Source: Minisyncoccota bacterium
GTDB lineage: Bacteria > Patescibacteriota > Microgenomatia > UBA1400 > UBA12028
Direction: 5' to 3'
DNA length: 64,000 bases
NCBI GenBank assembly: GCA_016211945.1
Contig: JACRHV010000004.1
Location: 66,649-130,648, forward strand
This document shows, in pieces, positions 14,614 to 64,000 of this stretch. A program made the translations under genes and the position numbers. Below the pieces are notes generated by a model. It ran no database searches and had not been told where the DNA came from. It was given only the letters and a program-made list of their open reading frames with translations. Every line of letters starts with the position of its first letter. Position 1 is the first letter of the stretch.

Positions 14614-16623
14614 ATGAAATTTGCTTTTTTTTATTTCTTCTTCATTTTTTTTACTCTAGCTTTTTTCTCTTCTGGTGTACTGGATTCAGAAGACAGTTGG
14701 CTATATGTTTCTGTCGCAAAAAACATCTACTACAATCATGAGATAACAGCCGCACCAAATGAATATGCGCAAAGAAAGAACGTGAATTTTAACGCTACAC
14801 TCGGAGCAGATGGAAAATGGAGGACATCACAAGCGCTAGGATATTCGATTGCAATGGTACCAGCAGTAGCGCTGTCCGATGTAGTTCATAGATATTATGG
14901 AGTTCCCTCAACAAATCATTTTCCTCTAGAACACGACTGGACTCTCCATTTTTTTGCCAGTTTTACAAACTCATTTTTAGCGGCTCTCCTTGCTGTGTAT
15001 ATCTATTTTTACGGCATACTCCTAGGTCTACCCAAAAAATCTGCCCTCATCCTTAGTCTCTTTGTGACCTTTGCTACTATCGTGATGCCGATGTCAAAAC
15101 TAGGTTTTGCGCAGATGTTGTTCACATCGGCATTGGTCGCAACCTGGTATCATATGACCCGTTGGCTAAAATTATCTGAAAGAAAAGACATTGTTTTTTT
15201 CTGTGTAACTTTCGGAACTCTTATTCTCTCATATAACTCTTCTTATCTTCTTACAATCCCGCCACTCGCGCTTTATGTGTATCTTGTTCTTTTAAAGAAA
15301 TATGACTGGCTTGCACAACATCACAAAAGGAATCTTCTTTTTCTTGTCATTGGCGGCATTGTTTGTTCTTTTCTTTTTTTCTCCCCATCAATTCTTTCAG
15401 TTTTAGAAGCGTTTCGCCCCAAAGCATTGTTTGAAGGAGTCTGGGGATTTTTGCTAAGCCCTGGCAAAAGTGTTTTTTTGTACAATCCACCACTTATTAT
15501 TTTGCTCATTTTTTGGTACAAAATCCCAAAAAAATATATGCCAGAAACAATATCGTGGATCTTTCTTGCTTTCCTCTATCTCTTTGTTTATGGATCAGCA
15601 CGCCTCAGAGAGGATGTGTATATTTGGCACGGCGGTATGGGGTGGGGTGCTCGATACATTTTTCCTCTCGTTCCTTTTTTTGCGATGCTCGCGTATCTCA
15701 CTACCCAACGTCTTTCATCACTCCAAAGAAAATTGGTGTGGTATCCGTTTATCGCATTGAGCATCTTTATACAGATCATAGGTTCAACAATTCCATATCT
15801 CGTTCAATACCGCAGTCTTCCATACAACATTTTCATCAATAAAATGGAAATTCTTCACTACGATTATGCAAGTTTTCTCCCCAGATACTCTCCGCTCATC
15901 CTGATGCTGAGAGAGTTTAAAACAAAATTGCGAGAGCTCCCTCTTACGATTGATCATGGTGATTACAAAGCACGACTTGTTGACGGGTTCAACCCACCAC
16001 TCAAGATAGGAAACGGAGCATTTCGTGGAATACAACGTCAAGGATATCTGGAATATCAACAGCAGAAATCTCGACCGCTAAAATCCATAGCCCTTAGTCT
16101 TTACAATGCACCAGACAATCCAAGCATAGGAACATACTCTGCGCTGCTACAACTCAAGTTGAACGAACACCAAATTGAACAAGACATTATTATTCCCTCT
16201 CAAAAAGATGTAACTTCTCGTCTCCAAATCCCAGACGGAATAGAAAAACAAGCAGATAATCTTATTGAATTTTCTGTGCAATATATAGGAACGTCATCGG
16301 CACACCAAGTACTGTACGTAAAATCGCTTGCGTTTAATGACGCCCCCATCAATATTCGTTCTCTCGATTATCCGGATCTTTCCGCATTAGGAGAAAAAAC
16401 GAGTAATCGACCATATCGAGTATTTGGGAAAGAACGGAAAGACCTCTGGGAGTTATGGAATCTTCGTGCTCGTATTTCTGAGGAAACATTTGATCTTTGG
16501 TGGATTAAAAATTTGTATTATTGGGACCGACCTCAAAATCTTGTTTGGGCCTTATTTTGTGTAAATGTTGCGGGAATATTTGTCACAGGCTGGTATGTCT
16601 TTCGTCGAGTGATGTATACTTAA
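14614..16623 (+). CDS. large polytopic membrane protein with a C-terminal soluble domain, putative GT-C-like
   Basis: 669 aa. The N-terminal half has 12 or more hydrophobic helices and an early loop DSEDSWLYVSVAKNIYYNHE. The C-terminal ~250 aa are hydrophilic. Confidence 0.45.
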   Translation: MKFAFFYFFFIFFTLAFFSSGVLDSEDSWLYVSVAKNIYYNHEITAAPNEYAQRKNVNFNATLGADGKWRTSQALGYSIAMVPAVALSDVVHRYYGVPSTNHFPLEHDWTLHFFASFTNSFLAALLAVYIYFYGILLGLPKKSALILSLFVTFATIVMPMSKLGFAQMLFTSALVATWYHMTRWLKLSERKDIVFFCVTFGTLILSYNSSYLLTIPPLALYVYLVLLKKYDWLAQHHKRNLLFLVIGGIVCSFLFFSPSILSVLEAFRPKALFEGVWGFLLSPGKSVFLYNPPLIILLIFWYKIPKKYMPETISWIFLAFLYLFVYGSARLREDVYIWHGGMGWGARYIFPLVPFFAMLAYLTTQRLSSLQRKLVWYPFIALSIFIQIIGSTIPYLVQYRSLPYNIFINKMEILHYDYASFLPRYSPLILMLREFKTKLRELPLTIDHGDYKARLVDGFNPPLKIGNGAFRGIQRQGYLEYQQQKSRPLKSIALSLYNAPDNPSIGTYSALLQLKLNEHQIEQDIIIPSQKDVTSRLQIPDGIEKQADNLIEFSVQYIGTSSAHQVLYVKSLAFNDAPINIRSLDYPDLSALGEKTSNRPYRVFGKERKDLWELWNLRARISEETFDLWWIKNLYYWDRPQNLVWALFCVNVAGIFVTGWYVFRRVMYT

Positions 16624-16629
16624 CACATC

Positions 16630-17412
16630 ATGATTTCAATCATACTGCGGCCGTTCCAGTCATACAAATATCTCTTGTTGCAACTTACACAGCGCGAGAT
16701 AAAATCTCGATATAAGCAGTCTTTTGTGGGTTATGCTTGGGTAATCCTGAACCCGTTAGCGCAACTTCTTGTGTATTCGTTTGTTTTTTCTGTTGTTTTC
16801 CGCTTCCCAACACATGATATTCCATACATCATTTTCTTGTATGCTGGTTTACTTCCTTGGGGACTTTTTCAAGGATCGATTTCAGCAGCAACACAATCGC
16901 TTGTTGAGAATGCACCTCTTATTCGCAAGGTGAATTTTCCACGTGAGATTATTCCATATTCCGTTGTTCTTGCAAAAATAGTCGATTTTCTTGTTTCTGC
17001 GCTTATTTTTATTGGATTTATGATCGCTTTTCGCGTTCCATTTTCATCAACCACGATCTATCTTGTCCCATTATTTTTCAGTCAACTCCTTCTTACTATT
17101 GGTATTTCGCTCATACTATCGGCAGGTAATCTGTTTTATAGAGATATTCAATACCTCGCAAATCTCCTACTTATGCTCTGGATGTACATGACTCCTGTTG
17201 TCTATCCTCTGTCACTTGTACCAACACAGTATGTTTGGTTCTATAAACTCAACCCCATGGTTGGTATTTTAGAGGGTTATCGATCTGCACTATTTAACTA
17301 CCCATTTGAATGGACTATTATATCTTGGTCTTTGGCTATTTCATGCCTCGTTTTTCTCATTGGATTTTTTGTATTTAAAAAAAGTGACAAGATTTTTGCG
17401 GATATTGCATAA
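16630..17412 (+). CDS. ABC-2 type polysaccharide/teichoic-acid exporter permease (Wzm/TagG/KpsM-like)
   Basis: 260 aa with 6 TM helices. N-terminus LLLQLTQREIKSRYKQSFVGYAWVILNPLAQLLVYSFVF is characteristic of ABC-2 permeases. Confidence 0.85.
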   Translation: MISIILRPFQSYKYLLLQLTQREIKSRYKQSFVGYAWVILNPLAQLLVYSFVFSVVFRFPTHDIPYIIFLYAGLLPWGLFQGSISAATQSLVENAPLIRKVNFPREIIPYSVVLAKIVDFLVSALIFIGFMIAFRVPFSSTTIYLVPLFFSQLLLTIGISLILSAGNLFYRDIQYLANLLLMLWMYMTPVVYPLSLVPTQYVWFYKLNPMVGILEGYRSALFNYPFEWTIISWSLAISCLVFLIGFFVFKKSDKIFADIA

Positions 17413-17413
17413 C

Positions 17414-18154
17414 ATGAATACGCCAATACACATTCCTGCTATTAGATTTGATCGGGTTTCAAAATCGTATTATCTTCAGGAGGATCGTACGTTTAAAGAC
17501 GTCATTCCAAGCTTGCTTCTTGGAAAGCCATGGGCAAAAAAACATATCGTGTTCCATGATTTGAATTTCTCTATCGCGCAGGGGGAAACTGTTGGAATTG
17601 TAGGAAAAAATGGAGCCGGAAAATCTACCATGTTGAAACTCATTGCAGGAGTAACGTACCCCAATACTGGTTCTGTTGTGGTTCAAGGTCGTGTTGCACC
17701 TCTTATTGAATTGGGTGCTGGTTTTCATCACGAACTATCCGGATATGAAAATATATTTCTAAACGCAGCGATTCTTGGTATGCACAAAAAAGAAATTGAG
17801 TTAAAAATAGATGAGATTATCAAGTTTAGTGAACTTGAAGAATTCATTCATGTTCCAGTAAAACGATATTCGTCTGGTATGCATATGAGGCTTGGATTTT
17901 CCGTTGCCATCCATGTTGATGTGCCGATCTTACTCATTGATGAAGTTCTTGCTGTTGGTGACCGAGATTTCCAGCAAAAATGTTTGAATAAACTTCAAGA
18001 GTTAAAGCAGAATAAACAAAAAACAATTGTTTTTGTAAGTCATAATGAAGAAGCGGTAAGAAGCTTTTGCGATCGAGCGATTCTTCTAGAACACGGGAAA
18101 ATTATTGAAGACGGAAATCCAAAGAGGGTGTTTGAACGATATAATAAGGCGTAA
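17414..18154 (+). CDS. ABC transporter ATP-binding protein (Wzt/TagH/KpsT-like), short form without a C-terminal glycan-binding domain
   Basis: Walker A GIVGKNGAGKST, signature YSSGMHMRLGFS, Walker B ILLIDEVLAVGD. Start set at MNTPIHIPAIRF immediately after the Wzm stop; the ORF-track extension to 17306 is probably spurious. Confidence 0.85.
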   Translation: MNTPIHIPAIRFDRVSKSYYLQEDRTFKDVIPSLLLGKPWAKKHIVFHDLNFSIAQGETVGIVGKNGAGKSTMLKLIAGVTYPNTGSVVVQGRVAPLIELGAGFHHELSGYENIFLNAAILGMHKKEIELKIDEIIKFSELEEFIHVPVKRYSSGMHMRLGFSVAIHVDVPILLIDEVLAVGDRDFQQKCLNKLQELKQNKQKTIVFVSHNEEAVRSFCDRAILLEHGKIIEDGNPKRVFERYNKA

Positions 18155-18155
18155 T

Positions 18156-18785
18156 TTATTTTTTGCCGCGAATAAAAAGCCAGTGATACCATTCTATCTT
18201 GTGCCAATCCATATTCCCTTGAACATCCTCTGCCTTCCAATTGAGCAGTGGTTTCCCCAAAATTTCTGGAGTTGGATTACAGTTTCTACAATCTTTAAAC
18301 CTCGCTTCCTTAAACCAGCGTTTTGCATCCTGATATGTCCATAACCAATGATGTACATCATACTCATTTTCATGTCCACCGACTGCCCATCGTTGGAGCC
18401 AATAGTTGCTTACTCGTTTTAGAGAAGAAGATGTACATATTTTTTCAAAGTCAGGAGTGACAATGAAAAATGTACCACCTGGCTTTAATATTCGATATAC
18501 CTCCTTTACAACTTCTACTGTTGTTCCATATCGTTTCTGCATTGATTTACTGCTATATTCTGGATGACAAAAGTGTTCCATGATGTGTACAGCACGTACT
18601 TCCTTCCTTACAAAATTATCTGGAATTGGTGTTTTCCGTACATCGGAAAGAATATCTAAATCGGGTAAATTTGGAAGAATATCAAGATGAACATATCCAG
18701 ATTCAGGATTGTTACCAGATCCGATTTCGAGTTTCTCAATACCATTGGGAAAAGATTGTAATACCTGATTTTTTTTCGTTAACAT
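18156..18785 (-). CDS. class I SAM-dependent methyltransferase
   Basis: SAM-binding motif LEIGSGNNPESGYVHLD, motif II ILKPGGTFFIVTPD. It is convergent with wzt, 1 nt apart. Confidence 0.7.
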   Translation of the reverse strand: MLTKKNQVLQSFPNGIEKLEIGSGNNPESGYVHLDILPNLPDLDILSDVRKTPIPDNFVRKEVRAVHIMEHFCHPEYSSKSMQKRYGTTVEVVKEVYRILKPGGTFFIVTPDFEKICTSSSLKRVSNYWLQRWAVGGHENEYDVHHWLWTYQDAKRWFKEARFKDCRNCNPTPEILGKPLLNWKAEDVQGNMDWHKIEWYHWLFIRGKK

Positions 18786-18875
18786 GTGCGTACCTCTGTA
18801 TTTATACTACGACATATTCGTGTAAAATAAAATCAACTGTCTTCGAATGAGATTAAAAAGTAAAGAGAAAATTCT
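18786..18875. promoter_or_regulatory. divergent promoter region between the methyltransferase (-) and the UDP-GlcA 4-epimerase-like gene (+)
   Basis: 90-bp AT-rich spacer containing tatttatact and taaaataaaa TATA-like hexamers. Inference only. Confidence 0.3.
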
Positions 18876-19844
18876 ATGACAATACTCGTTACGGGTGCTG
18901 CTGGTTTTATCGGTTTTCACACATGTTCTCGTCTTTTAAGCGAGAATATTTCGGTGATTGGCATAGATAGTTTTGATCCATATTACTCACTCGCAATAAA
19001 ACATGCCCACATAGACGCATTAAAAAAGTCATCTCTTTTTTCTTTTTACTTATGCGATATACGTTCAAAAGAATTTTCATCACTCATACGCCAAACCAAA
19101 CCAGATATTATTATACATTTAGCTGCAAAGGCTGGCGTGCGAAACAGTTTTCTCTATCCATTTGAATACTTTGATGTAAATGTACACGGAACAATGCTTG
19201 TGTTGCAGGCAGCAAAAACAGCAAGTATTCCCAGAGTACTCATCGCTTCAAGTTCTTCAGTATATGGAACAAATAAAAAAATTCCGTTTCACGAAAACGA
19301 TGTTGTTGAACATCAAGTTTCCCCGTATGCAGCAAGCAAACGTGCAATGGAAATAGTAACAAAATCATTTGCCAAATCAACAGGAATTCATGTTCAGCTT
19401 TTCCGTTTTTTTACTGTCTATGGTCCATCTGGCCGTCCTGATATGGCTCCATACCTTTTTACAAAAGCTATTGATGCTGAACAACCTCTCACCATCTTTG
19501 GTGATATGACAACAAAACGAGATTACACATATATTGATGATATTACTGAAGGCTTACTATCGGCAACTAAACGTGATGATGTATTTGAAATCTATAATTT
19601 GGGGAATAACAAGCCCGTTACATTGAAAACGTTCATACATACCATTGAAAAAGTTGTTGGGAAAAAAGCTAAATTACATAGAGTTCCCAAACAAAAAGGC
19701 GATGTACCATATACTTGGGCTGATATTTCAAAAGCACAGAAATTTTTAAGGTTTTCTCCTCAAACAAGTTTATTCAATGGTCTTACAAAGTTTTATTCAT
19801 GGTATAAAACAAACTCACATTTTTATACAACACAACTAGATTAA
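18876..19844 (+). CDS. NAD-dependent epimerase, UDP-glucuronate 4-epimerase (CapI/Cap1J/GlaKP)-like
   Basis: MTILVTGAAGFIGFHTCSRLL...IGIDSFDPYYSLAIKHAHIDAL...IHLAAKAGVRNS...YAASKRAME. Confidence 0.7.
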   Translation: MTILVTGAAGFIGFHTCSRLLSENISVIGIDSFDPYYSLAIKHAHIDALKKSSLFSFYLCDIRSKEFSSLIRQTKPDIIIHLAAKAGVRNSFLYPFEYFDVNVHGTMLVLQAAKTASIPRVLIASSSSVYGTNKKIPFHENDVVEHQVSPYAASKRAMEIVTKSFAKSTGIHVQLFRFFTVYGPSGRPDMAPYLFTKAIDAEQPLTIFGDMTTKRDYTYIDDITEGLLSATKRDDVFEIYNLGNNKPVTLKTFIHTIEKVVGKKAKLHRVPKQKGDVPYTWADISKAQKFLRFSPQTSLFNGLTKFYSWYKTNSHFYTTQLD

Positions 19845-19856
19845 GGAAACACGTAT

Positions 19857-21701
19857 ATGTGTGGAATTGCAGGAAAAATCATTATTGGAGATACACCAAA
19901 AAAAGAAGACATTAGTCAAATGCTTGAGACTATTGCACATCGTGGTCCTGATGATATAGGAATATCAATAGTAGGGCCAGCAGGATTAGGGCACCGCCGA
20001 CTTGCAATTATCGATCTCTCACCCAAGGGACACCAACCAATGTCATATGCAAACGGAAGATACAACATTACATTTAATGGTGAAATATACAATTATCAAT
20101 CACTTCGAAATCTTCTTTCCCAAAAAGGATATACATTTACTTCAACGTCTGATACTGAAGTAATTCTCGCAATGTATCAGGAATTTGGTATGAAATGTCT
20201 TCACTATTTTAATGGCATGTTCGCATTTGCCCTCTATGATAAAAAAGAGAATACACTTTTTGCAGCACGCGATAGACTCGGAGAAAAGCCTTTCAAATAT
20301 TTTTTCGATGGAAAAACATTTATTTTTGCTTCTGAATTAAAGGCAATTCTTACACAAACAGAAGTTTCATGTAAACACGACATACAAGCAATTAAAGAAT
20401 ATCTTTATTGGGGATTTGTTCCTTCACCTAAGACGGGATATAAAGATATTAATAAGCTTCCCGCGGCACATTATTTATTGTTCAAAAATGGAAAAGTGAT
20501 TACAAAAAGATATTGGGACTTCTCAAACACTATAAATACATTCCGAACAGAAAAAGAGACAAAAGAAACACTACGTGAACTTTTATATGAAAGCGTTCGA
20601 CTTCGAATGATCTCAGATGTTCCAATTGGTTCTTTTCTCTCTGGAGGAATCGATTCGTGTGTTGTGACGGGAATCATGAGTGAATTATCAAAAAAACAAG
20701 TTCGCACTTACACAATTGGAATCGAAGGATGGAGTAGTGATGAAGCTTCCTTAGCTAAAATTAGTGCAAAATATCACAATACAAAACATAAACTTTTATA
20801 TGTAAAACCGAACATTTCAAAACTTATACCACTTCTTGCTAAAGCATACGAAGAACCATTCGGTGATTCGTCAGCTATACCAAGTTATTATGTAAGTCAA
20901 GCAACGCGAAAACACGTAACTGTCGCATTAAATGGCGATGGAGGAGATGAAAACTTTTGTGGATATAGCAACTATACAACACTTATTACACAAGATAAAT
21001 TACAATACACAAAACCAATCGCTACACTTGCTTACGCAATACTTTCCCCATTTAAGGCAAGTTTATGGAAATATGGAGCATATCAACGGGCATTACGCAT
21101 TTCTGATCTATTAAAAGATGATGTACTCACAGGATATGCAAGGCACGCACGATCATATCTTAACCTCATATCATTCTCTGATCTTTTTCATGAATCTGCA
21201 CCAACTGAAATCAACCTTTTTACACAATACCTTCCAAAAGAGAAAAAAGACCTTATATCCTCTGTGACATGGGCAGATTTGCATAATGTACTACCAGATG
21301 GTTTGATGCCCAAAATGGATATTGCCTCTATGCAGCACTCATTAGAAACTCGCGCACCCTTGCTCGATCATCAATTAGTTGAATTTGCTGCAACTATACC
21401 AACAGAGCTAAAATACAAAAATGGTCAAACAAAGTGGATATTTAAAGAAACATTCAAAAAACTTATTCCATTAGAAATATTAAAAAGCCCTAAGCGAGGA
21501 TTCGTCATGCCTATGGGTGATTGGTTAAGGCATGAACTTCGACCCCTCCTTGAGATCTCATTACAAGATCCAAAACATCAAATCTATTCCATTCTTCGCT
21601 ATGATACCGTACAAAAAATGATGAAATATCATATGGAAATTCAGATTGATTACACTCCATACCTTTGGAGGATACTTATGCTCTCACTTTGGATGAACTA
21701 A
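19857..21701 (+). CDS. asparagine synthase (glutamine-hydrolysing) family amidotransferase, AsnB/WbpS-like
   Basis: 614 aa. N-terminal MCGIAGKI (Ntn Cys2) and the PP-loop SGGIDSCVV. An AAGGA sits ahead of the start. Confidence 0.85.
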   Translation: MCGIAGKIIIGDTPKKEDISQMLETIAHRGPDDIGISIVGPAGLGHRRLAIIDLSPKGHQPMSYANGRYNITFNGEIYNYQSLRNLLSQKGYTFTSTSDTEVILAMYQEFGMKCLHYFNGMFAFALYDKKENTLFAARDRLGEKPFKYFFDGKTFIFASELKAILTQTEVSCKHDIQAIKEYLYWGFVPSPKTGYKDINKLPAAHYLLFKNGKVITKRYWDFSNTINTFRTEKETKETLRELLYESVRLRMISDVPIGSFLSGGIDSCVVTGIMSELSKKQVRTYTIGIEGWSSDEASLAKISAKYHNTKHKLLYVKPNISKLIPLLAKAYEEPFGDSSAIPSYYVSQATRKHVTVALNGDGGDENFCGYSNYTTLITQDKLQYTKPIATLAYAILSPFKASLWKYGAYQRALRISDLLKDDVLTGYARHARSYLNLISFSDLFHESAPTEINLFTQYLPKEKKDLISSVTWADLHNVLPDGLMPKMDIASMQHSLETRAPLLDHQLVEFAATIPTELKYKNGQTKWIFKETFKKLIPLEILKSPKRGFVMPMGDWLRHELRPLLEISLQDPKHQIYSILRYDTVQKMMKYHMEIQIDYTPYLWRILMLSLWMN

Positions 21702-22545
21702 ATTTCATGTTGGTTCTCTTCAAAATATACACTTCATAACATAAAAAGGCATAGTACAACGCTTGATAAAATGCATATTTCCATAGCGAGAATTTTTCAG
21801 TAGGAAATGAAAGTTTTAGAGATCCTAAAAAGAAGTATATAAAAATAAACGGAGCAATAAGTAAATCATAATGAGCAATCCATTCAATATGTTTTGGTTT
21901 TTGCTTTTTATAATATTGATATCGAGGTATTGCAGAGATAGGAGTAAGCACCTGTTTTGCGTGTAATCGTAGCCAATGCATCCATTTTGTTCGAAAAGCA
22001 CTCAATGTAACATTATTGTATGCAGGCTTATGCTCAAGCTGTAATGGCACATCTAGAGATGTCCCATGTATAGTCCAATCTGGATGCAAAATTGCGAGAA
22101 ATTGTAATGAAGTTTTCTTTACTACTCCAATTCTATGTGGCCATTGATGTGTATAATATTTTTTTCCATCCCAAAATCTCCACAAAAACATATAGCCATC
22201 TGCATTTCCGGAATTTACTAGTTTACGCAAATTTTTTCGAAGTTTATTACTCAGATATTCATCAGCATCTAATATCAAAATCCAATTACCTCGAGCTTTT
22301 TTGAATGTAGTTATTCTGTGCGGTTCTGGATAACCGCATGTTTTACCAATCCATATTTTATTTGTATATTTTCTTGCTATTTTTAGTGTTTTATCTGTAC
22401 AAGGTCCATCATGAACAATAATTATTTCATCAACCACGCCAATTACACTTTTTAAACACCGTCCAATTTGTTCCTGATCATTATGAACAACAAGACAGGC
22501 TGATATACTATTTTTTATAGAAGATTCGAATGTTTTTACAGACAT
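21676..22545 (-). CDS. family 2 glycosyltransferase with a C-terminal membrane segment
   Basis: ACLVVHNDQEQIGRCLKSVIGVVDEIIIVHDGPCTDKT...ILDADEY, with a hydrophobic C-terminus. Start placed at MSVKTFES. Its 3' end overlaps the convergent asnB-like gene by 26 nt. Confidence 0.7.
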   Translation of the reverse strand: MSVKTFESSIKNSISACLVVHNDQEQIGRCLKSVIGVVDEIIIVHDGPCTDKTLKIARKYTNKIWIGKTCGYPEPHRITTFKKARGNWILILDADEYLSNKLRKNLRKLVNSGNADGYMFLWRFWDGKKYYTHQWPHRIGVVKKTSLQFLAILHPDWTIHGTSLDVPLQLEHKPAYNNVTLSAFRTKWMHWLRLHAKQVLTPISAIPRYQYYKKQKPKHIEWIAHYDLLIAPFIFIYFFLGSLKLSFPTEKFSLWKYAFYQALYYAFLCYEVYILKRTNMKFSSSKVRA

Positions 22546-23617
22546 ATTCAACCTGACTTTGTGTAATTGTGGCGAACATTGGTAAAGATAAAATTTCACT
22601 TACCGTTAATTCTGCAGAAAAAAATTGATTATTCTTTCCATACAACTTTTCAAATGCTACTGTTTTATGTAGTGGAACTGGATAGTGAATTCCTGTATCA
22701 ATACCTCTATCATGAAGATATTGAATGAGTTCATCTCGATTTTTTACATGAACAACAAAAAGATGATAAACGTGTGAACCATCAAGCTTTGGCACTTGAA
22801 ATTTTACTTCTTTTATACCCCTCAATCCTTTTGCATACCATTGCACAGCTTTGAGTCTCGCTTTATTTTGATACGATAGTAACGGCAATTTTTTACGCAA
22901 AAAAACAGCTTGCATTTCACTTGCACGTAAATTCATGCCTACTATGTCGTGAAAGTACTTAATACGAGATCCATGCCCTCTATACAAACGCATATATTGA
23001 TCAAGAATAGTATTGTCTGTAACAACAGCACCCGCTTCACCGAGTGCACCAAGATTTTTTCCAGGATAAAAACTATAACACGCTACGTCACCTTCAACTT
23101 TAGATTTACCTCCAACAATCGCACCATGTGCCTGACATGCATCTTCAACAATAGCCGATGATGATTTTTTTTTCTTCAATATTTTTTTAATTTCCATAAT
23201 ATTGACTCGTTGACCATACAGATGAACTGGAATAATGGCGACCGTTTTTTTGCTTATTTTCTTTGCTGTATCTTCAAGATCCATAAGAAAAGTCTCTTTA
23301 TTAATATCCACAAAAATAGGTTTTAAACCGCAAAGAACCGCAGCTTCAGCTGTAGCAATAAAAGTATTTACTGGAATAATAACCTCTCCTCCTCTTGGTA
23401 AGTGCAGTGCAGATAAAGCTACAAAAAGCGCGCTCGTCCCATTATTCACAAGCAATGCGTGTTTGGCTCCACAATATGAAGCAAAATCCTGCTCGAAAAG
23501 TTCAGTTTCTTTTCCTGCTACAAATGAGTTTGTACGAATAATTCGTTTAAATTCTGAAATAAATACTTTTTCGAGAGGTTTATGGATACTGTATAAGTCA
23601 ACAAATGGTACCTTCAT
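22508..23617 (-). CDS. DegT/DnrJ/EryC1/StrS-family PLP-dependent sugar aminotransferase (WbpE/ArnB-like)
   Basis: 369 aa, DegT-family fold: FVDLYSIHKPLEKVFISEFKRIIRTNSFVAGKETELFEQDFASYCGAKHALLVNNGTSALFVAL. Confidence 0.85.
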   Translation of the reverse strand: MKVPFVDLYSIHKPLEKVFISEFKRIIRTNSFVAGKETELFEQDFASYCGAKHALLVNNGTSALFVALSALHLPRGGEVIIPVNTFIATAEAAVLCGLKPIFVDINKETFLMDLEDTAKKISKKTVAIIPVHLYGQRVNIMEIKKILKKKKSSSAIVEDACQAHGAIVGGKSKVEGDVACYSFYPGKNLGALGEAGAVVTDNTILDQYMRLYRGHGSRIKYFHDIVGMNLRASEMQAVFLRKKLPLLSYQNKARLKAVQWYAKGLRGIKEVKFQVPKLDGSHVYHLFVVHVKNRDELIQYLHDRGIDTGIHYPVPLHKTVAFEKLYGKNNQFFSAELTVSEILSLPMFATITQSQVEYVCKNIRIFYKK

Positions 23618-24075
23618 GTTTTTTCCCTTTTGAGATCTTTTGCAGGATTACCAATGACTGTTGTGTGTGCGCGTACATTCTTTGTCACAACAGCCCCCGC
23701 CCCAATTGTAGCTCCCTCACCTATCTCTATTCCAGGTAAGATTACTGCCCCACTACCAATTGAGGCTCCCTTCCGCACAAAAGTGTGCTCCATAACATAA
23801 TCATTTCCAGATTTTAGTGAGCCATTTGCATTACAGGCATGTGGGTACTTGTCATTTGTAAACATTACTCCGTGACCAATAAATACCTCATCTTCAATTT
23901 GAACACCAGAACAAATAAAAGTATGACTACTGATTTTACATTTCGATCCTATTTTTACCATTGATTGAATTTCAACAAATGCTCCAATCTTCGTCATATC
24001 TCCAATTTCTGCACCATAAACATTCACTGGCTCATATATCTCCACTTTTTCACCCAAGATAGTACCTTTAACCAC
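23614..24075 (-). CDS. hexapeptide-repeat N-acetyltransferase acting on an amino sugar (WbpD/QdtC/PglD-like)
   Basis: 153 aa, left-handed beta-helix repeats: IGAFVEIQSMVKIGSKCKISSHTFICSGVQIEDEVFIGHGV, IGSGAVILPGIEIGEGATIGAGAVVTKNV. Confidence 0.8.
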   Translation of the reverse strand: MVKGTILGEKVEIYEPVNVYGAEIGDMTKIGAFVEIQSMVKIGSKCKISSHTFICSGVQIEDEVFIGHGVMFTNDKYPHACNANGSLKSGNDYVMEHTFVRKGASIGSGAVILPGIEIGEGATIGAGAVVTKNVRAHTTVIGNPAKDLKREKT

Positions 24076-25066
24076 GCGCCCTCCTCAGCAATTTCTGTGT
24101 TTTAGATAATAGTCGGACAACTCGAAGACCTGCATCTCCATCATTAAGCGCCTCTTTTTTGCCACGGATTGTATCAATACATGCCTGCACAACATTTGTT
24201 AGAGTTTCTGTTTGATCAATCTTTGGTATCACGATATCTCCAGATCGATACTGAGGTTGAAACGGATTCTCTGCCGTCTTGAGTATCGAGACACCTTTAT
24301 CATACACTCTGATTTTTTCACTAGGCTCAGTATCATCGTAACGTATCATTGCTTTTTCGCCCACCAGCATGATTTGACGAACTTTTAATGGAGAAAGCCA
24401 GGACAAAGTAATATTTGCAACAAAACCTTTCGGATATCGAAGGTGAATATGTGCCAATTCCTCCTGTTTTTTTCCAATATGTGTTGATCCTGATACTTGT
24501 ATAGAAATTGGCTGCTTTCCGCCACACAGATAGTCTAAAATGGAAAAGTCATGAGGGGCTAAATCTGTTATTACGTTCGTTTTTAATTGGATGAGCCCCA
24601 TATTGAGTCGCAATGAGTCATAATAATATAACTTTCCTAATTCATCTGAATCTATTAATTCTTTCATCTTTTGTACTGCTGATGAAAATATGAAGGGGTG
24701 GTCTACAAATAATTTTAATTTTTTCTTCCTTGCTAAGGCTACAATTTTCTCTGCTTGTTCCACAGTTTCAGTCATCGGTTTTTCAACAAAAACGTGTTTT
24801 CCTGCTAATAAACATTGCCGAACAATCTCGTAATGAAAAGGTGTTGGCACCGCAACAACGATGACTTGTATTGTTGGGTCCTGGAGTAAATCGATATGAT
24901 TTTTCGTAATTTGAATAGTTGGATATTGTTTTTTCACCTTATCGAGGTTTTTTTGAATAAGATCACAAACCCACACAGTTTCAATTTCAGCGTGTGCATA
25001 AAAATTACGTAGGAGATTTGGTCCCCAATATCCGTAACCAATAAAGCCAATTCTTATCTTATCCAT
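24068..25066 (-). CDS. Gfo/Idh/MocA-family NAD-dependent oxidoreductase (WbpB-like UDP-sugar 3-dehydrogenase)
   Basis: N-terminal Rossmann motif IRIGFIGYGYWGPNLLRNF. 332 aa. It sits immediately upstream of the acetyltransferase and aminotransferase. Confidence 0.8.
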   Translation of the reverse strand: MDKIRIGFIGYGYWGPNLLRNFYAHAEIETVWVCDLIQKNLDKVKKQYPTIQITKNHIDLLQDPTIQVIVVAVPTPFHYEIVRQCLLAGKHVFVEKPMTETVEQAEKIVALARKKKLKLFVDHPFIFSSAVQKMKELIDSDELGKLYYYDSLRLNMGLIQLKTNVITDLAPHDFSILDYLCGGKQPISIQVSGSTHIGKKQEELAHIHLRYPKGFVANITLSWLSPLKVRQIMLVGEKAMIRYDDTEPSEKIRVYDKGVSILKTAENPFQPQYRSGDIVIPKIDQTETLTNVVQACIDTIRGKKEALNDGDAGLRVVRLLSKTQKLLRRARG

Positions 25067-26369
25067 TCCATGTCCTATATTCTATATAATCAATAATACG
25101 TTTAAACGTACGAAAAAACATTACGATCCTAGAATCTCTTGATACTTTATGGAATTTAATAAAATTATCATACCATAACGAAAAGGTTTTCAAATCGCTT
25201 TTTTTTACATGAATCCGAGTAAATTTATATGGAAGATTGAGTACCATTTTTATCAATTCCTCAAATTCCCTTACTACTATCCTTGATTCTATTGTTCGTA
25301 ATACTTTAGTTCTAGCATGTGATCCCCATTTTTCCCTTAAAGTTGGCTTTGCCGCTAATAATTCCAGTATTGACGTCCATTCACCATTTGTTTGTGCAAT
25401 ATAGCCATTTTCTTGATGATCGACTTGTTCAATTTGACCATTATCACAATGAGGTGAAGAGTTTGTAATTATAGGTTTTCTCCAAAACATACACTCATTT
25501 ATTGCATTACTGCATCCTTCTCCTATTTTGACTGCATGCCCAACGATATCTACGCATTGGATATATTCCATTAATATTTTGTCATTTTTTGTAGGCATGA
25601 GTACGCGTATAGTTTTCTGTAATTTGGGGAAGATAAATTGTAATATTCCTAAAATAAAACGCCGAGAACGCGGCATTCCTATGATGAGAAATTTTATTCT
25701 AGGGTGATAACGTAACTTAATCAATGAAATAAAAAGTAAGTCTCCCCATTTCACAATATCGTTTCTCCCAAATCTTCCCACAACACAATCTTTTCGAGAA
25801 AAACCTAATGATTTTCGAAGTAAACTTCTCTTATAAAGAGAAATCTGAAATTGATGGAAATATGAGGAATTTACAGGATTTGGAAGGATTGCATATTTAT
25901 GATCGGGAAATTGATGATCTCTAGGACATGATTTTTTGAATTTGATTTCAAACATCATTTTTGTTTGAAAAAGTGTGAGGTCAAATATATAATCCATTTT
26001 TTCGTCATAATACGAAAATACGTTATTTCCGATCAATTTTATTCCAGATTTTTTCAGCTTAGAAAGTAACTCCCATAGCAAAGGGTCAAACTGTCCGTCA
26101 TACCAGGTATATAAAACTGTTACTTTTTGCCTTTTGGCAAATAATGCAATTTGTTCTAGATCAGAAGTGACTATTCTTGGTGTTTTTCTTCTTATAACCT
26201 CGTCAATATTTCGAACAACAGACTCAGACATAACCGCAATTACTACTCTAAATTTTGATCTGTCCAGGTAATCGCAATACGATTTAATTCTTCTTGCTCC
26301 TCCACCAAGATCAAGGTGAGGAAGAAGTAAAAGTATTGTTTGTGTTTTCATAAGATCTGCGTATGACAC
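25059..26369 (-). CDS. GT-B fold glycosyltransferase (GT4-like), divergent
   Basis: 436 aa. C-terminal region GEGCSNAINECMFWRKPIITNSSPHCDNGQIEQVDHQENGY resembles the GT4 E-X7-E nucleotide-sugar pocket. The N-terminus LLLPHLDLGGGARRI is like GT-B glycine-rich loops. Confidence 0.55.
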   Translation of the reverse strand: MSYADLMKTQTILLLLPHLDLGGGARRIKSYCDYLDRSKFRVVIAVMSESVVRNIDEVIRRKTPRIVTSDLEQIALFAKRQKVTVLYTWYDGQFDPLLWELLSKLKKSGIKLIGNNVFSYYDEKMDYIFDLTLFQTKMMFEIKFKKSCPRDHQFPDHKYAILPNPVNSSYFHQFQISLYKRSLLRKSLGFSRKDCVVGRFGRNDIVKWGDLLFISLIKLRYHPRIKFLIIGMPRSRRFILGILQFIFPKLQKTIRVLMPTKNDKILMEYIQCVDIVGHAVKIGEGCSNAINECMFWRKPIITNSSPHCDNGQIEQVDHQENGYIAQTNGEWTSILELLAAKPTLREKWGSHARTKVLRTIESRIVVREFEELIKMVLNLPYKFTRIHVKKSDLKTFSLWYDNFIKFHKVSRDSRIVMFFRTFKRIIDYIEYRTWNG

Positions 26370-26466
26370 TCTTCAATAAGTAGACTAGTAAATTCATACT
26401 GTACACGAATTTATTAACATAAGAAACACTTGATTTATCATACTTAATATCTAATTCTCAGCTCAA

Positions 26467-26501
26467 TGATTTTCCCCGCGGCAGAGCCACGGGGAAAATC
26501 A
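26467..26501. repeat. GC-rich perfect 11-bp inverted repeat (gattttccccg / cggggaaaatc) with a 5-nt loop, forming a 12-15 bp stem, in a divergent promoter region
   Basis: Read directly: 26468-26478 gattttccccg, 26490-26500 cggggaaaatc, which is its exact reverse complement. Extra flanking pairs at 26467/26501 and 26480-81/26487-88. The surrounding DNA is AT-rich. No T-tract follows, so it is not a typical intrinsic terminator. Confidence 0.45.
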
Positions 26502-26545
26502 AGTTATATGAAATAAGCGATAAGTAACAAAAGTGCTATTTGAGA

Positions 26546-26553
26546 TGTATAAT
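26546..26553 (+). promoter_or_regulatory. putative sigma70-type -10 element (TGTATAAT) about 50 nt upstream of the wzx-like gene
   Basis: Sequence atgTATAATgtg at 26548-26553. No convincing -35 element or Shine-Dalgarno was seen. Confidence 0.25.
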
Positions 26554-26604
26554 GTGAACGTATAACACAATATTTATCAAGATATATTTAGTTTTTAAAC
26601 TTAC

Positions 26605-28002
26605 ATGCACAATTCAATACTTAAGAATATATCTTGGCAAACGTTATACCAATTTTTAGCAAGTGGTTTAGGTTTATTATTCAACATTATTTTAGCTAGA
26701 ACAATTTCTCAGTTTGAGTTTGGTACATTCAATTACATCATATCCATCCTTTCAATTTCCACACTTTTTCTTGAACTGGGGATACCCACTTATTTTTGGA
26801 GAAAATGGAGCACCGATATTTCGAAAATAAATCAGGATATAAGTTCATATTTAGTCGGTAGAGTCGGTATTGCTATACCAATTAGTTTTTTTCTTTTCTT
26901 TTATGTTTTTTTCATTGATCGATTTGTAAGCTTAGAATTTTTACTAGCCTACATTTATTTTTTACTTGACATTTTTGTACAACCAACACGACTTTTCTTT
27001 TCATCTCAAAATAAATATCACAAAACATTTATTATCGATGGTTTAGAAAGGTGCATATCATTAGGTTTAGGCATCTTATTGCTCATTTTGCATTATCCTT
27101 TACGAAAAGTATTTTTAGGATTCATATTTGGACGATTGACCTCAATTCTTTTGTGCTATGTTTTAAATAAAAATGTTCGATCATTATCTTTTTCCTTTAA
27201 GGGAATTCGTAATATCATTCATCTTTCCATACCACTCTTTATGATTGGGATATTTTCTACTTTGTATTTCCGCATCGATACACTTATGATTCGGTACCTC
27301 CTCGGTATGCAGGACGTTGCCATATATATGGCCGCATACAGACTCCTAGATGGAGGAGCTCTTATACCTGGAATTCTTACTACTGCAACAATGCCATTAA
27401 TTGTAAAACTCTATCATGACAAGGAAAAAAAGAAATTAACTCTTCTATTTCATAACATGATGATAGTATTGGCAATTCCAGCGCTATATATTGCATCAGT
27501 TTGTTTACTTTTTGCTCCAAATATTATTCCATTAATCTTTGGTCCAGAATTTAATAGTTCTATTCAAATCTTACGAGTACTTGGCTTAAGTTCAGTACTA
27601 TTATTCCTCACATACCCACTTACCCATTTTATGGTCGCAAATAAACAGGAGACTTACTATGTGAAGGTGCTGGTATTACTTACAGTAACCAACATTGTGT
27701 TTAACATTCTACTAATTCCGAAGATTGGCATACTTGGATCGGCATTAGCAACACTTTTGTGTGAACTTTTATCATTAATTTTTTTGTACCATAAAGTTCA
27801 GATTAAAATTCCAATCAAGATATTTTTAAAACTATTTTTCTCCATTTTTATTGCAACACTCATAACACTTATGCTTCCATTTCCATGGTATATCAATATT
27901 TTTTGCTTGGGTATTTTGTATTGTTGTATACTATTAATAGTAAAAATAGTAACTATACAAGAAGTTTTTTTGTACTTACGCGGAATATTAGTCAATGATT
28001 AA
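26605..28002 (+). CDS. polysaccharide biosynthesis protein, Wzx-type flippase (MOP superfamily)
   Basis: 465 aa with about 12-14 TM helices. N-terminus ILKNISWQTLYQFLASGLGLLFNIILARTISQFEFGTFNYIISILS is characteristic of Wzx/RfbX. Confidence 0.8.
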   Translation: MHNSILKNISWQTLYQFLASGLGLLFNIILARTISQFEFGTFNYIISILSISTLFLELGIPTYFWRKWSTDISKINQDISSYLVGRVGIAIPISFFLFFYVFFIDRFVSLEFLLAYIYFLLDIFVQPTRLFFSSQNKYHKTFIIDGLERCISLGLGILLLILHYPLRKVFLGFIFGRLTSILLCYVLNKNVRSLSFSFKGIRNIIHLSIPLFMIGIFSTLYFRIDTLMIRYLLGMQDVAIYMAAYRLLDGGALIPGILTTATMPLIVKLYHDKEKKKLTLLFHNMMIVLAIPALYIASVCLLFAPNIIPLIFGPEFNSSIQILRVLGLSSVLLFLTYPLTHFMVANKQETYYVKVLVLLTVTNIVFNILLIPKIGILGSALATLLCELLSLIFLYHKVQIKIPIKIFLKLFFSIFIATLITLMLPFPWYINIFCLGILYCCILLIVKIVTIQEVFLYLRGILVND

Positions 28003-29164
28003 ACTTATTAAATCCACTTTCTTTCATGAGCTACAAACAAAAAAGGCATTATGTGCTTTTATTTTGAAATCAGAACAACTTAGCATTGGAAAAAAATGTG
28101 ATGAATTCGAAAAAAGATTTGCAATCTGGCAAAAAAGAAAATTTTGTGTCCTATTCAATACGGGTAGTTCGGCAAATTTAGCTCTCATTCAGGCACTATT
28201 GAATCTTGGAGTAATTGGAAAGGGTTCAAAAATTGGATTTTCTGGTATTACCTGGGCTACAAATGTGATGCCACTAATGCAGTTGGGACTAGAACCAATT
28301 CCAATTGATGTTGAAGTTGAATCTCTGAACGTTTCACCAAAAACGTTAGAAGACTCGTATAATAAAAATCCTTTCCAATGCCTCTTTCTTACTAATTTAC
28401 TTGGACTATCAGATGATATTCTGGGTATAAAAAATTTCTGCCAAGAGAAAAACATTCTACTTCTTGAAGATAACTGCGAATCACTTGGGAGCATTTCCAA
28501 TAATATAATGCTTGGTAATTTTGGATTAGCATCCACATTTTCATTTTTTGTTGGTCATCATATGTCAGCCATAGAAGGTGGTGCAGTGTGTACAAACGAT
28601 AAAGATTTGAATCGAGAGCTTCGCATGGTGAGATCTCACGGATGGGACAGACATCTATCAAAAAAAGAACAAAAGTTTCTGAGATTAAAACATAACATTT
28701 CAGATTTTGAAGCTAAATATACTTTTTTTGATCTTGCGTATAACTTACGACCCACTGAAATTACTGGTTTCTTAGGTCTTCATCAGCTTGCATTTCTACA
28801 CAAAACAATAAAGTCTCGTGAATCAAATTTCAATGCATTCCTTACTTTGCTAAAAAATTCTGCAAAATTTTACCCCTTAAATATTAAAATGAATTGCACT
28901 TCAAATTTTGCTATGCCAATCATTTGTAAGGCGGAAGTTACTAAGAAAAAATGCATTCAATTATGTAAAAAAAAGGGTATTGAAATTCGTCCTATTGTTG
29001 GTGGTGTTATGTCTGATCAACCTTTTTTCAAAAAATATATTACGAAAACCTTTTATCTCCCCAACTCTAGACTTATTCATAAAAACGGGTTTTATTTTGC
29101 CAATAACCCTGAATTATCTCAAAAAGAGATTAAATATATTATTTCTACATTATCTTCGATATAA
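27995..29164 (+). CDS. DegT/DnrJ/EryC1-family PLP enzyme (RfbH/sugar aminotransferase or dehydratase-like)
   Basis: 389 aa. ...LSIGKKCDEFEKRFAIWQKRKFCVLFNTGSSANLALIQALL... follows the DegT-family pattern. 8-nt overlap with wzx. Confidence 0.65.
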   Translation: MIKLIKSTFFHELQTKKALCAFILKSEQLSIGKKCDEFEKRFAIWQKRKFCVLFNTGSSANLALIQALLNLGVIGKGSKIGFSGITWATNVMPLMQLGLEPIPIDVEVESLNVSPKTLEDSYNKNPFQCLFLTNLLGLSDDILGIKNFCQEKNILLLEDNCESLGSISNNIMLGNFGLASTFSFFVGHHMSAIEGGAVCTNDKDLNRELRMVRSHGWDRHLSKKEQKFLRLKHNISDFEAKYTFFDLAYNLRPTEITGFLGLHQLAFLHKTIKSRESNFNAFLTLLKNSAKFYPLNIKMNCTSNFAMPIICKAEVTKKKCIQLCKKKGIEIRPIVGGVMSDQPFFKKYITKTFYLPNSRLIHKNGFYFANNPELSQKEIKYIISTLSSI

Positions 29165-29169
29165 ATCTT

Positions 29170-30381
29170 ATGCGTATTGCAATCGTTATTTGGCAAATCG
29201 TAACCAATGGAGGATCTGTTCGGCAAGCTTTAGAACTTGCAAATTCTCTTCAGAGACTTGGTCATGACGTCGAACTAGTAACGTATGCATTTAGTAAATT
29301 ACATTGTTATCCAGAGTTAACAAAATCTTTAAAGATCTATTGTGCCGATTCTATTTCAATGTCTCAGTTCTTTTATAATCCGTCCGCATCCATTTTTGTT
29401 CGAATCTTTGGGTTTTTTTACAATATGTTCGTTGCTCATATTCATACAAGTGCAATTAAAGAAAAGCTTTTAGAAAGAAATTCATTTAAACAATTTGATG
29501 TTGTCAACTATCATGACAACGGAGTTATTCAACTCGCCAAATATTTTCCAAGATCAAAAAACATCTGGATGATGAATGATCCTTCATCATTTATTGATAC
29601 GAAAGAAAAGGATGCATCAGTGTATGCAAAAACATCATTGATTTCAATCTTAGCTTATCTTGAATCAAGATATATAAATAAACTTCTTCGGTCTATTGAT
29701 AGAATCATTGTGTTGGATGAAAGAAACAAGTCTATTGTCTGTAAATACTACAGTCGTGAAGCGCACATCGTACGTAGTGGTGTAGCTCTATGCACAACAA
29801 ACAAGTTTTCTTTCAGAAACAAAAAAAATCAAGTTTTACGTATAATGTCAACAAATATTTTTTTTCGACATAGGAGATATGAAGACCTCATTGAGGCGAT
29901 TAAAATTATTGTGTTAAGAAAAAATCATCCTCAATTTCACGTGTATATTATTGGTGATCCAATTTCAGATCTTGGATATTACCATGAAATACGTTTCAGT
30001 GTTTCAAAATATCGACTTGAAAAATATATTACATTTCTTGGAAAAGTTTCTGAATCTGAACTTAATGAACAATATGAACGCGCAGATATTTTTGTGTTCC
30101 CTAATCATAATCAAACTTGGGGATTGTCTGTTTTCGAAGCAATGCTTCATGGTTGTGCATGTATAGTAAGTAAAACTGCTGGAGCACATGAAGTGCTTAA
30201 AGATGGACAAAATGTTTTACTTATTCAACCAAAAAAACCACTCGATCTTGCTGAAAAATTGTTATTACTTCTACGATCGACAACTCTTCGTAAATCTCTA
30301 GCAAAAGAAGGATTTCAGTTTGTACAAAAAAATATATCTTGGGACAAATATGCCAAAGACATGACTGTTATTTTTTCATAA
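29170..30381 (+). CDS. family 4 glycosyltransferase
   Basis: C-terminal motif FVFPNHNQTWGLSVFEAMLHGCACIVSKTAGAHEVLKDGQNVLLIQP. Confidence 0.8.
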   Translation: MRIAIVIWQIVTNGGSVRQALELANSLQRLGHDVELVTYAFSKLHCYPELTKSLKIYCADSISMSQFFYNPSASIFVRIFGFFYNMFVAHIHTSAIKEKLLERNSFKQFDVVNYHDNGVIQLAKYFPRSKNIWMMNDPSSFIDTKEKDASVYAKTSLISILAYLESRYINKLLRSIDRIIVLDERNKSIVCKYYSREAHIVRSGVALCTTNKFSFRNKKNQVLRIMSTNIFFRHRRYEDLIEAIKIIVLRKNHPQFHVYIIGDPISDLGYYHEIRFSVSKYRLEKYITFLGKVSESELNEQYERADIFVFPNHNQTWGLSVFEAMLHGCACIVSKTAGAHEVLKDGQNVLLIQPKKPLDLAEKLLLLLRSTTLRKSLAKEGFQFVQKNISWDKYAKDMTVIFS

Positions 30382-31183: not shown

Positions 31184-31195
31184 ACCCTTTATTCT

Positions 31196-34967: not shown

Positions 34968-35008
34968 AATATGAATTGTATCAAGAATATACGTGGAAGA
35001 ACAGGTTC

Positions 35009-37906: not shown

Positions 37907-37910
37907 ACGC

Positions 37911-51194: not shown

Positions 51195-51204
51195 CTCTTT
51201 TTTC

Positions 51205-59420: not shown

Positions 59421-59425
59421 ATCTT

Positions 59426-59638: not shown

Positions 59639-59678
59639 ATCTTCATTTCATTTTACCACCCAACACCTCCTCTATGAT

Positions 59679-62699: not shown

Positions 62700-62702
62700 A
62701 TA

Positions 62703-63257: not shown

Positions 63258-63258
63258 A

Positions 63259-63978: not shown

Positions 63979-64000
63979 TAGATCTTCTCCACAAATGAAG

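Follow-up and report, generated by a model that had tools for sequence, protein, structure and literature searches.

Steps 2-4 in the synthesis of UDP-2,3-diacetamido-2,3-dideoxymannuronic acid (UDP-ManNAc3NAcA) are carried out by WbpB, WbpE and WbpD in Pseudomonas aeruginosa and by WlbA, WlbC and WlbB in Bordetella. In Acidithiobacillus ferrooxidans, GnnA (PDB 7bvj) works with GnnB, supplying lipid A; this system is not known to have a dedicated N-acetyltransferase. The Qdt and Fdt pathways obtain the 3-keto sugar from a 4,6-dehydratase and a 3,4-ketoisomerase, with no involvement of a Gfo/Idh/MocA enzyme. In Methanococcus maripaludis (MMP0350-0352), the acetyltransferase MMP0350 is needed for the diacetylated glucuronic acid carried by surface appendage proteins (PMC2952790). 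Here we describe a cassette of three overlapping genes, encoding a Gfo/Idh/MocA oxidoreductase, a hexapeptide acetyltransferase and a DegT aminotransferase, in a 64,000-nucleotide stretch of contig JACRHV010000004.1 (hereafter, the window) from a bacterium of the Candidate Phyla Radiation (CPR). The three enzymes very likely equip a nucleotide-activated hexose, whichever it is, with an acetamido group at C3 by oxidation, amination and acetylation. They belong to a widespread clade, with members in bacteria and archaea, in which we found no characterized protein and for which, as judged from sequence, neither the commonly applied label WbpB/WbpE/WbpD nor the 2,3-diacetamido uronic acid deduced from it is justified.

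Three coupled enzymes and their nearest relatives

In order of transcription, the three minus-strand open reading frames (ORFs) encode a 332-aa NAD-dependent Gfo/Idh/MocA sugar dehydrogenase, proposed from Pfam, NCBIfam and Foldseek matches to be a nucleotide-sugar C3 dehydrogenase (24068-25066); a 153-aa left-handed beta-helix (LbH) N-acetyltransferase with a GTG start, proposed from Pfam and PDB profile matches to be of the 3-amino-sugar type (23614-24075); and a 369-aa DegT-family pyridoxal phosphate (PLP) aminotransferase, proposed from Pfam, PDB phmmer and Foldseek matches to act at C3 of a nucleotide sugar (22508-23617). The oxidoreductase stop and the acetyltransferase start overlap by 8 nt at the junction GTGGTTAA, with a Shine-Dalgarno-like GAGGAGG four nt 5' of the GTG, and the acetyltransferase stop and the aminotransferase start share 4 nt in an ATGA junction. 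The oxidoreductase gene is also overlapped, by 8 nt, by an upstream GT4-like glycosyltransferase gene (26369-25059). ORFs, Pfam domains and junctions agree with the back-to-back trio, overlapping by 4-8 nt, that a first-pass annotation of this DNA had placed here. A scan of the region from 21.4 to 26.8 kb for promoters and terminators returned fewer sites than shuffled controls and was uninformative.

The three proteins are identical to GenBank MBI5151187.1 (oxidoreductase), MBI5151186.1 (acetyltransferase) and MBI5151185.1 (aminotransferase), generically annotated entries from a 331,097-bp contig of a Candidatus Pacebacteria metagenome-assembled genome (phylum Minisyncoccota, CPR). The GenBank model of the acetyltransferase starts at an internal Met and has 127 aa, and the Logan gene call gives 153 aa; we prefer the 153-aa GTG form because it aligns end to end, starting with its first residue, with homologues of 148-153 aa and because GAGGAGG precedes the GTG.

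The aminotransferase, which matches PF01041 (DegT_DnrJ_EryC1) with 322 bits (6.7e-96), appears to be a C3-type rather than a C4-type DegT enzyme. When its AlphaFold2 (AF2) model (pLDDT 93.2) was compared with known structures using Foldseek, ranks 1-26 were occupied by sugar 3-aminotransferases only, and the first C4 enzyme, a GDP-perosamine synthase, stood at rank 27. The leading phmmer matches in the PDB are 7b0d (281 bits), QdtB (265 bits) and 7n63 (260 bits), with WbpE at 181 bits. Identity amounts to 40% with both 7b0d, an Archaeoglobus veneficus sugar transaminase, and QdtB, to 37% with HCAN_0200, WlaRG and DesV, and to 31% with WbpE, Pcryo_0616, NtdA and KabA. Across 29 homologues, the Schiff-base lysine K187 (in YPGKNLG), D159 and Q162 do not vary.

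The acetyltransferase (PF00132 Hexapep, 5.7e-20) consists of hexapeptide repeats only and lacks the N-terminal globular domain of the PglD/PerB-type enzymes. Against the PDB, its family profile scores highest with FdtD (118.6 bits), 7s43 and 7s3u (114 and 112 bits), WlbB (105 bits) and QdtC (85.5 bits); all five are 3-amino-sugar N-acetyltransferases, and more than 25 bits separate them from the next match, which scores below 60. The 165-aa enzyme in 7s43 and 7s3u we take to be the dTDP-3-amino-sugar N-acetyltransferase of Helicobacter pullorum. The first-pass annotation had named, as grounds for giving up its Wbp assignment, a grouping of this protein with QdtC/FdtC-type enzymes and of the oxidoreductase with an unrelated clade, and in part this is seen: by BLASTP, identity of the acetyltransferase is slightly higher to FdtD (43%) and to the H. 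pullorum enzyme (41%) than it is to WlbB (34%), with QdtC at 35%. FdtD and WlbB share 43% identity with each other, and similarity among enzymes of this class is therefore no guide to the nucleotide or sugar that they use. A beta-helix register collinear with WlbB alone was considered and dropped, the BLASTP alignment being equally collinear with FdtD. Among the homologues, H51 and N74-D75 of the FTND motif are invariant; a catalytic role has been reported for the Asn of this motif in QdtC and WlbB.

The oxidoreductase covers the PF01408 (GFO_IDH_MocA) profile in full (1-120 of 120; 1.9e-27) and carries PF22725 and PF02894 in its C-terminal part. The hallmarks of the family, namely the Rossmann GxGxxG, the EKP and the C-terminal D-x3-H pair, are all present, and G10-x-G12-Y-W-G15 (the NAD Rossmann motif), D35, E95-K96-P97 and D168...H172 are invariant across 28 homologues. 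The AF2 model (pLDDT 89.2) reaches template modelling (TM) scores of 0.8-0.9 with family structures. Foldseek places GenD2, 3c1a and GnnA at the head of its list, and the best superpositions are with GnnA and 3c1a (TMt 0.89-0.91, rmsd 2.2-2.8); WlbA appears at rank 40 (20% identity). The C3 dehydrogenases among the structural neighbors are GenD2, GnnA, DgpA and WlbA, and the enzyme probably acts at C3 as well. GnnA is thus the characterized structure on which the oxidoreductase superposes best, and the archaeal UDP-GlcNAc 3-dehydrogenase model NF040723 is its best curated family, both with full-length alignments, but identity to GnnA is 20% (at most 24% to any solved structure) and the NF040723 score, 151 bits, falls short of the equivalog cutoff of 450. 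The other clade members tested, one of them archaeal, likewise score below that cutoff, all members falling in the range of 127-180 bits. In the comparison of the family profile with the PDB, 3c1a (105 bits) and GnnA (99.5 bits, full length) are followed by WlbA (70 and 67 bits for 3q2k and 3q2i), and no WbpB-type entry is found among the best 60 matches.

Relatives of the cassette were detected in at least 591 species-level genomes, among them Acidobacteriota, Nostoc, Rhizobium, Azospirillum, Nitrospira and CPR lineages; the linkage counts given here and below refer to the best 80 loci from these genomes. Within 5 kb of the oxidoreductase gene, the acetyltransferase is encoded in 64 loci, the aminotransferase in 60 and both in 54, and the linked trio, found in four gene orders, always lies on one strand; the linkage is therefore not accidental. 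The cassette is an old or mobile unit, and it is a common one, so that the rarity attributed to its sugar by the first-pass annotation does not hold at the gene level. In a Methanocaldococcus sp. (GCA_054010215.1, 5277-10035), oxidoreductase, LbH and DegT genes follow one another in the same order as in the window, again between a GT4 and a GT2 gene, and the three proteins are 48, 51 and 47% identical to ours. The flanking GT4 and GT2 genes of this archaeon are not homologous to their counterparts in the window, which suggests that the trio is transferred or retained as one piece in both domains. Because the Methanocaldococcus oxidoreductase scores below the NF040723 cutoff (180 bits), it is not evidently an orthologue of MMP0352.

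The close relatives of the aminotransferase and the acetyltransferase raise an alternative, namely that these two enzymes make a dTDP-3-acetamido-3,6-dideoxyhexose from a 3-keto-6-deoxy sugar that a 4,6-dehydratase and a 3,4-ketoisomerase provide, with the oxidoreductase serving some other purpose. The nearest characterized relatives by sequence, QdtB/QdtC, FdtD, the H. pullorum enzyme, HCAN_0200 and WlaRG, are indeed of the Qdt/Fdt type and share C3 amine chemistry and the FTND motif, and the window encodes several 4,6-dehydratase-like short-chain dehydrogenases/reductases (SDRs) and a single small cupin, which is WbuC-like (37911-38354). However, the Qdt and Fdt systems lack a coupled Gfo/Idh/MocA dehydrogenase, and the one found here would be superfluous even though its gene is coupled to that of the acetyltransferase and linked to both partners in 54/80 loci. 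The cupin gene, moreover, lies 14 kb away beside a different, LegC-like DegT gene, its product scores below the WbuC cutoff, and no isomerase gene adjoins the cassette. From the same organism, two Logan contigs (100% and 99.95% identical) add 9.3 and 8.4 kb to the window, for about 82 kb in total; tblastn with Escherichia coli RffH (E<=1e-3) finds no RffH-like (RmlA) sequence in these 82 kb. Across genomes, true RffG-like dehydratases accompany the cassette in just 8/80 loci. We consider this route highly improbable.

The mechanism that we propose instead would begin with the Gfo/Idh/MocA enzyme, which would use NAD+ to convert the 3-hydroxyl to a 3-ketone; the DegT enzyme would then turn the ketone into a 3-amine with PLP and an amino acid donor; and the small LbH enzyme would N-acetylate this amine with acetyl-CoA. 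The product is probably consumed by the GT4-like and GT2 glycosyltransferases encoded in the same overlapping five-gene unit, and the sugar would leave the cell within a surface glycan of this monoderm CPR organism, which the neighboring Wzx flippase would export on a lipid carrier. The genes, their coupling, their family and sub-family assignments, the catalytic motifs and the linkage across genomes are observed directly, whereas we infer the regiochemistry of the oxidoreductase, the order of the steps, which nucleotide sugar is used and where the product goes. C3 chemistry is very likely because the three enzymes are coupled and two of them, the aminotransferase and the acetyltransferase, point to C3 independently. 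In this respect the first-pass annotation, which had recognized the enzyme set and the chemical logic of a 3-acetamido-3-deoxy sugar, is upheld by the Pfam, Foldseek and PDB matches and by translational coupling.

The chemistry is of the textbook kind, its understanding is unchanged by this cassette, and the occurrence of the cassette is ordinary. The significance of the finding lies in the amino sugar predicted for the surface glycan of an uncultivated CPR bacterium, and in the prospect that biochemical characterization of one member would give the substrate for hundreds of genomes.

Candidate substrates

The single most likely substrate, in our tentative assessment, is UDP-N-acetylglucosamine (UDP-GlcNAc), which would be converted to UDP-GlcNAc3NAc without prior oxidation at C6, that is, through an entry of the Gnn or archaeal type. 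We favor this substrate because GnnA and the archaeal model outrank WlbA in comparisons with the oxidoreductase, and because of gene context: no WecC-like or WecB-like sequence is found in the ~82 kb, and each of the two lies within 10 kb of the cassette in only 7 of the 80 loci. The underlying searches covered all window ORFs of at least 120 aa, which were scanned for Pfam domains, and yielded no match to PF03721, PF00984 or PF03720 (UDPG_MGDP_dh) and none to Epimerase_2, the domain of WbpI-type enzymes. With E. coli WecC as the tblastn query (E<=1e-3), nothing was found in the window or the 17.7 kb of flanking sequence, and E. coli WecB gave no tblastn match in the same ~82 kb. A 448-aa gene at the far left end of the extended locus has no Pfam match and no similarity to WecC.

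Several observations weigh against UDP-GlcNAc. The aminotransferase and the acetyltransferase are nearer to enzymes of 2-hydroxy dTDP-sugars than to those of the UDP-GlcNAc(A) type. In the oxidoreductase clade, the lack of a characterized member among the proteins found, the low NF040723 scores and the identity of at most 24% to solved structures leave regiochemistry and substrate to be read from context. No nucleotidyltransferase gene that would identify the nucleotide adjoins the cassette. Finally, uronate-type genes stand next to the cassette with no C6 dehydrogenase nearby, and the absence of WbpA from the window is therefore weak evidence on the substrate; the WbpA and WbpI partners that the first-pass annotation had suggested looking for are missing from the window and from the additional 8.4 and 9.3 kb, and this result should be read with the same caution.

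A substrate with a free 2-hydroxyl, such as UDP-glucose, UDP-glucuronic acid (UDP-GlcA) or a similar nucleotide sugar, is a credible if equally tentative alternative, in which case the product would be mono-acetamido, for example 3-acetamido-3-deoxyglucose (Glc3NAc) or a 3-acetamido-3-deoxy-hexuronic acid or its amide. The aminotransferase and the acetyltransferase are closest to enzymes with 2-hydroxy substrates (QdtB, HCAN_0200, WlaRG and DesV for the former; FdtD and the H. pullorum enzyme for the latter), NtdA and KabA of the kanosamine route are as close to the aminotransferase as WbpE is, and the neighboring genes for a WbpS-like amidotransferase and an SDR resembling UDP-GlcA 4-epimerase, part of a seven-gene module described below, point to UDP-GlcA-type chemistry. 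Homologues of the cassette are also present in Rhizobium species, and a 3-amino-3-deoxy-hexuronic acid has been reported in a Rhizobium O-antigen. On the other hand, overall similarity among the acetyltransferases does not track specificity, as the FdtD-WlbB comparison illustrates, the best curated and structural matches of the oxidoreductase act on UDP-GlcNAc, and in a bacterium that makes peptidoglycan UDP-GlcNAc is surely available. A related proposal, which we regard as somewhat doubtful, is that the whole clade uses a substrate different from those of both the Wbp/Wlb (UDP-GlcNAcA) and the Gnn (UDP-GlcNAc) systems, a 2-hydroxy hexuronate being one candidate. If such a hexuronate is the substrate, CPR bacteria would use it with the epimerase and the amidotransferase to make a 3-acetamido-3-deoxy-hexuronamide for the glycans of surface proteins or the wall.

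The canonical Wbp/Wlb route would start from UDP-N-acetylglucosaminuronic acid (UDP-GlcNAcA), made by a C6 dehydrogenase encoded elsewhere; the trio would convert it to UDP-GlcNAc3NAcA, from which the WbpS-like amidotransferase, with or without the epimerase, may make a uronamide. The enzyme set equals WbpB/WbpE/WbpD, with the same three folds and the same order of NAD-dependent oxidation, PLP-dependent transamination and acetyl-CoA-dependent N-acetylation at C3 (PMC10622841), and many homologues of the acetyltransferase are labeled 'UDP-2-acetamido-3-amino-2,3-dideoxy-glucuronate N-acetyltransferase' by the JGI pipeline. The amidotransferase related to eps_aminotran_1 and the SDR related to UDP-GlcA 4-epimerase are retained beside the cassette, and in one known case, that of Porphyromonas gingivalis, a Wbp system is associated with an AsnB-type enzyme: the product of the Wbp enzymes is amidated by WbpS, encoded by an asnB-type gene adjoining wbpE (PMC7468200). 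Furthermore, MMP0350, the acetyltransferase of M. maripaludis, acts on a diacetylated glucuronic acid found in the glycans of archaellin and pilin (PMC2952790). Against this route, orthology of the trio to the Wbp or Wlb enzymes is not supported, and neither is the equivalence to WbpB/WbpE/WbpD or WlbA/WlbC/WlbB proposed by the first-pass annotation. None of the three proteins has its Wbp counterpart as nearest relative: for the oxidoreductase, 67-70 bits with WlbA compare with 99.5 bits with GnnA, and WbpB-type entries are outside the top 60; the aminotransferase shares 31% identity with WbpE and Pcryo_0616 and 37-40% with dTDP-sugar enzymes; and the acetyltransferase is 34% identical to WlbB. 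Partners of the WbpA and WbpI type, which are missing from the ~82 kb, are neighbors of related cassettes in only 7/80 loci, whereas in Thermus five predicted Wbp-type enzymes have consecutive protein accessions, suggesting adjacent genes (PMC10622841). We therefore view UDP-GlcNAcA as an unlikely substrate. Because the host is a monoderm CPR bacterium without lipopolysaccharide, the glycan that receives the sugar is presumably not an O-antigen.

Another alternative is that the dehydrogenase and the aminotransferase act after glycosylation, on a sugar within a lipid- or protein-linked glycan, in the way that gentamicin intermediates are modified by GenD2 and GenS2. By E-value, the oxidoreductase has GenD2 as its leading Foldseek match, and glycoside 3-oxidases (DgpA) are near the top of the list. 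Nevertheless, identity to GenD2 is only 17-18%, with an rmsd of 9 compared to 2.2-2.8 for GnnA, the known substrates of close relatives of the aminotransferase and the acetyltransferase are all nucleotide sugars or sugar phosphates, and the three proteins appear from their sequences to be of the soluble type, without a membrane domain. Such tailoring is very improbable.

With respect to the product, a diacetamido sugar is, on balance, marginally favored. Of the 2,3-diacetamido sugar proposed in the first-pass annotation, the 3-acetamido part stands, but the second acetamido group is an assumption about the starting sugar that the sequence does not show.

A conserved gene module around the cassette

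The cassette forms the middle part of an apparent five-gene operon. The first gene of this operon encodes a 436-aa GT4-like glycosyltransferase (25059-26369, minus strand; matches to Glyco_trans_1_4 and Glycos_transf_1 below the gathering score), and the last encodes a GT2 glycosyltransferase (21676-22599, minus strand; PF00535, 4.4e-14). The 307-aa GTG form of the GT2 overlaps the aminotransferase by 92 nt, and a start at the ATG at 22545 reduces the overlap to 38 nt; this ATG is probably the actual start because the homologues, at 269-293 aa, are shorter than the 307-aa form. The same GT2 shows a weak match (34.7 bits) to the SunS family of peptide S-glycosyltransferases.

The three loci closest to the cassette (L001-L003), in which the oxidoreductases are 50-58% identical, have the same gene order of GT4-like glycosyltransferase, oxidoreductase, acetyltransferase, aminotransferase and GT2. 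The GT4-like gene occupies the same position in all three, with 41-46% identity, and the GT2 gene lies directly 3' of the aminotransferase, with 54-59% identity. Two of them, L001 and L002, continue with a convergent AsnB-like gene and an SDR gene, the arrangement also seen in the window, and the conserved module comprises seven genes.

In the window, the AsnB-type glutamine amidotransferase (19857-21701, plus strand) is convergent with the operon and, from its NCBIfam matches, is a candidate uronamide-forming, WbpS-like enzyme. Its best NCBIfam match is TIGR03108 (eps_aminotran_1), with 516 bits against a cutoff of 817, and it passes TIGR01536 (asn_synth_AEB) with 456 bits against a cutoff of 267. 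WbpS and WbqG, which are members of eps_aminotran_1, make uronamides (PMC7468200). The gene adjoins the cassette in both L001 and L002 (50-52% identity), and AsnB-like genes are found within 10 kb of the cassette in 13/80 loci.

The SDR gene paired with it (18876-19844, plus strand) encodes, as its PDB matches and a motif indicate, a candidate UDP-hexuronate 4-epimerase. The matches are 5u4q (245 bits), 6zl6 (195 bits) and MoeE5 (6kv9; 134 bits), with GalE entries at 132 bits or less. We take 6zl6 to be the UDP-GlcA 4-epimerase of Bacillus cereus (BcUGAepi). S126-S127-S128-V-Y-G of the SDR falls at the carboxylate-binding T126-S127-S128 site of this enzyme, and the Glu of the decarboxylases is missing. 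The SDR gene is kept beside the AsnB gene in L001 and L002 (54-56% identity), and the pair resembles MoeE5/MoeF5 and WbpP/WbpS, which follow a logic for galacturonamide-type sugars. Uronic acid chemistry is thus very likely used in the conserved module, to judge from these gene products, and an SDR of the uronate 4-epimerase type implies that the C6 dehydrogenase must be encoded elsewhere.

Divergent from the operon, a Wzx/MOP-type flippase gene (26605-28002, plus strand; PF01943 Polysacc_synt, 1.9e-24, with a weak NCBIfam match to MOP flippases) adjoins the cassette, as Polysacc_synt genes also do in L001-L003. Beside it lie genes for an RfbH-like DegT protein (188 bits to PRK15407) and a GT4 (27995-30381, plus strand). 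The same pair is found in L001 (13478-15888), placed between the cassette GT2 and the AsnB gene, and the module has therefore been rearranged.

The surrounding glycan-assembly region

The whole window is a glycan-assembly region. It encodes about twenty GT2 and GT4 glycosyltransferases, seven PMT_2/GT-C proteins, the Wzx flippase, an ABC-2 Wzm/Wzt pair (16630-18154) and the AsnB-type amidotransferase, along with five SDRs, three DegT proteins and two LbH proteins. The flanking contigs add further glycosyltransferases, a second flippase, a Wzy_C protein, a ManC-like nucleotidyltransferase and a Bac_transf initiating transferase. Glycan assembly occupies 82 kb or more and with it a considerable part of a small genome, which is a very large investment for a CPR bacterium.

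Four consecutive PMT_2/GT-C genes for membrane glycosyltransferase paralogues of 499, 541, 559 and 520 aa occupy 46463-52767 (minus strand), and further genes of this type are located at 8408-9892, 40462-42135 and 61167-62699. This set suggests glycosylation at the membrane's outer face, either of proteins or in lipid-linked form.

A second, putative amino-sugar unit (36770-39235, minus strand) comprises genes for the LegC-like DegT protein (341 bits, cutoff 420), the WbuC-like cupin mentioned above (147 aa; 33 bits, cutoff 42) and a GalE-like SDR (226 bits, cutoff 262). The region at 34023-36128 (minus strand) includes an SDR resembling GDP-L-fucose synthase (287 bits, cutoff 500) and a GT2 gene (35009-35788) that overlaps a gene for a DUF2304 membrane protein (35757-36128); in the related locus L003, a single fusion protein combines DUF2304 with an SDR.

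The G+C fraction is 0.31-0.39 at approximately 16000-36000 and at 58000-64000, compared to 0.40-0.45 in the rest of the window, and the cassette sits within the first of these low-GC blocks. The low G+C could mark where the locus is variable or was acquired by horizontal transfer.

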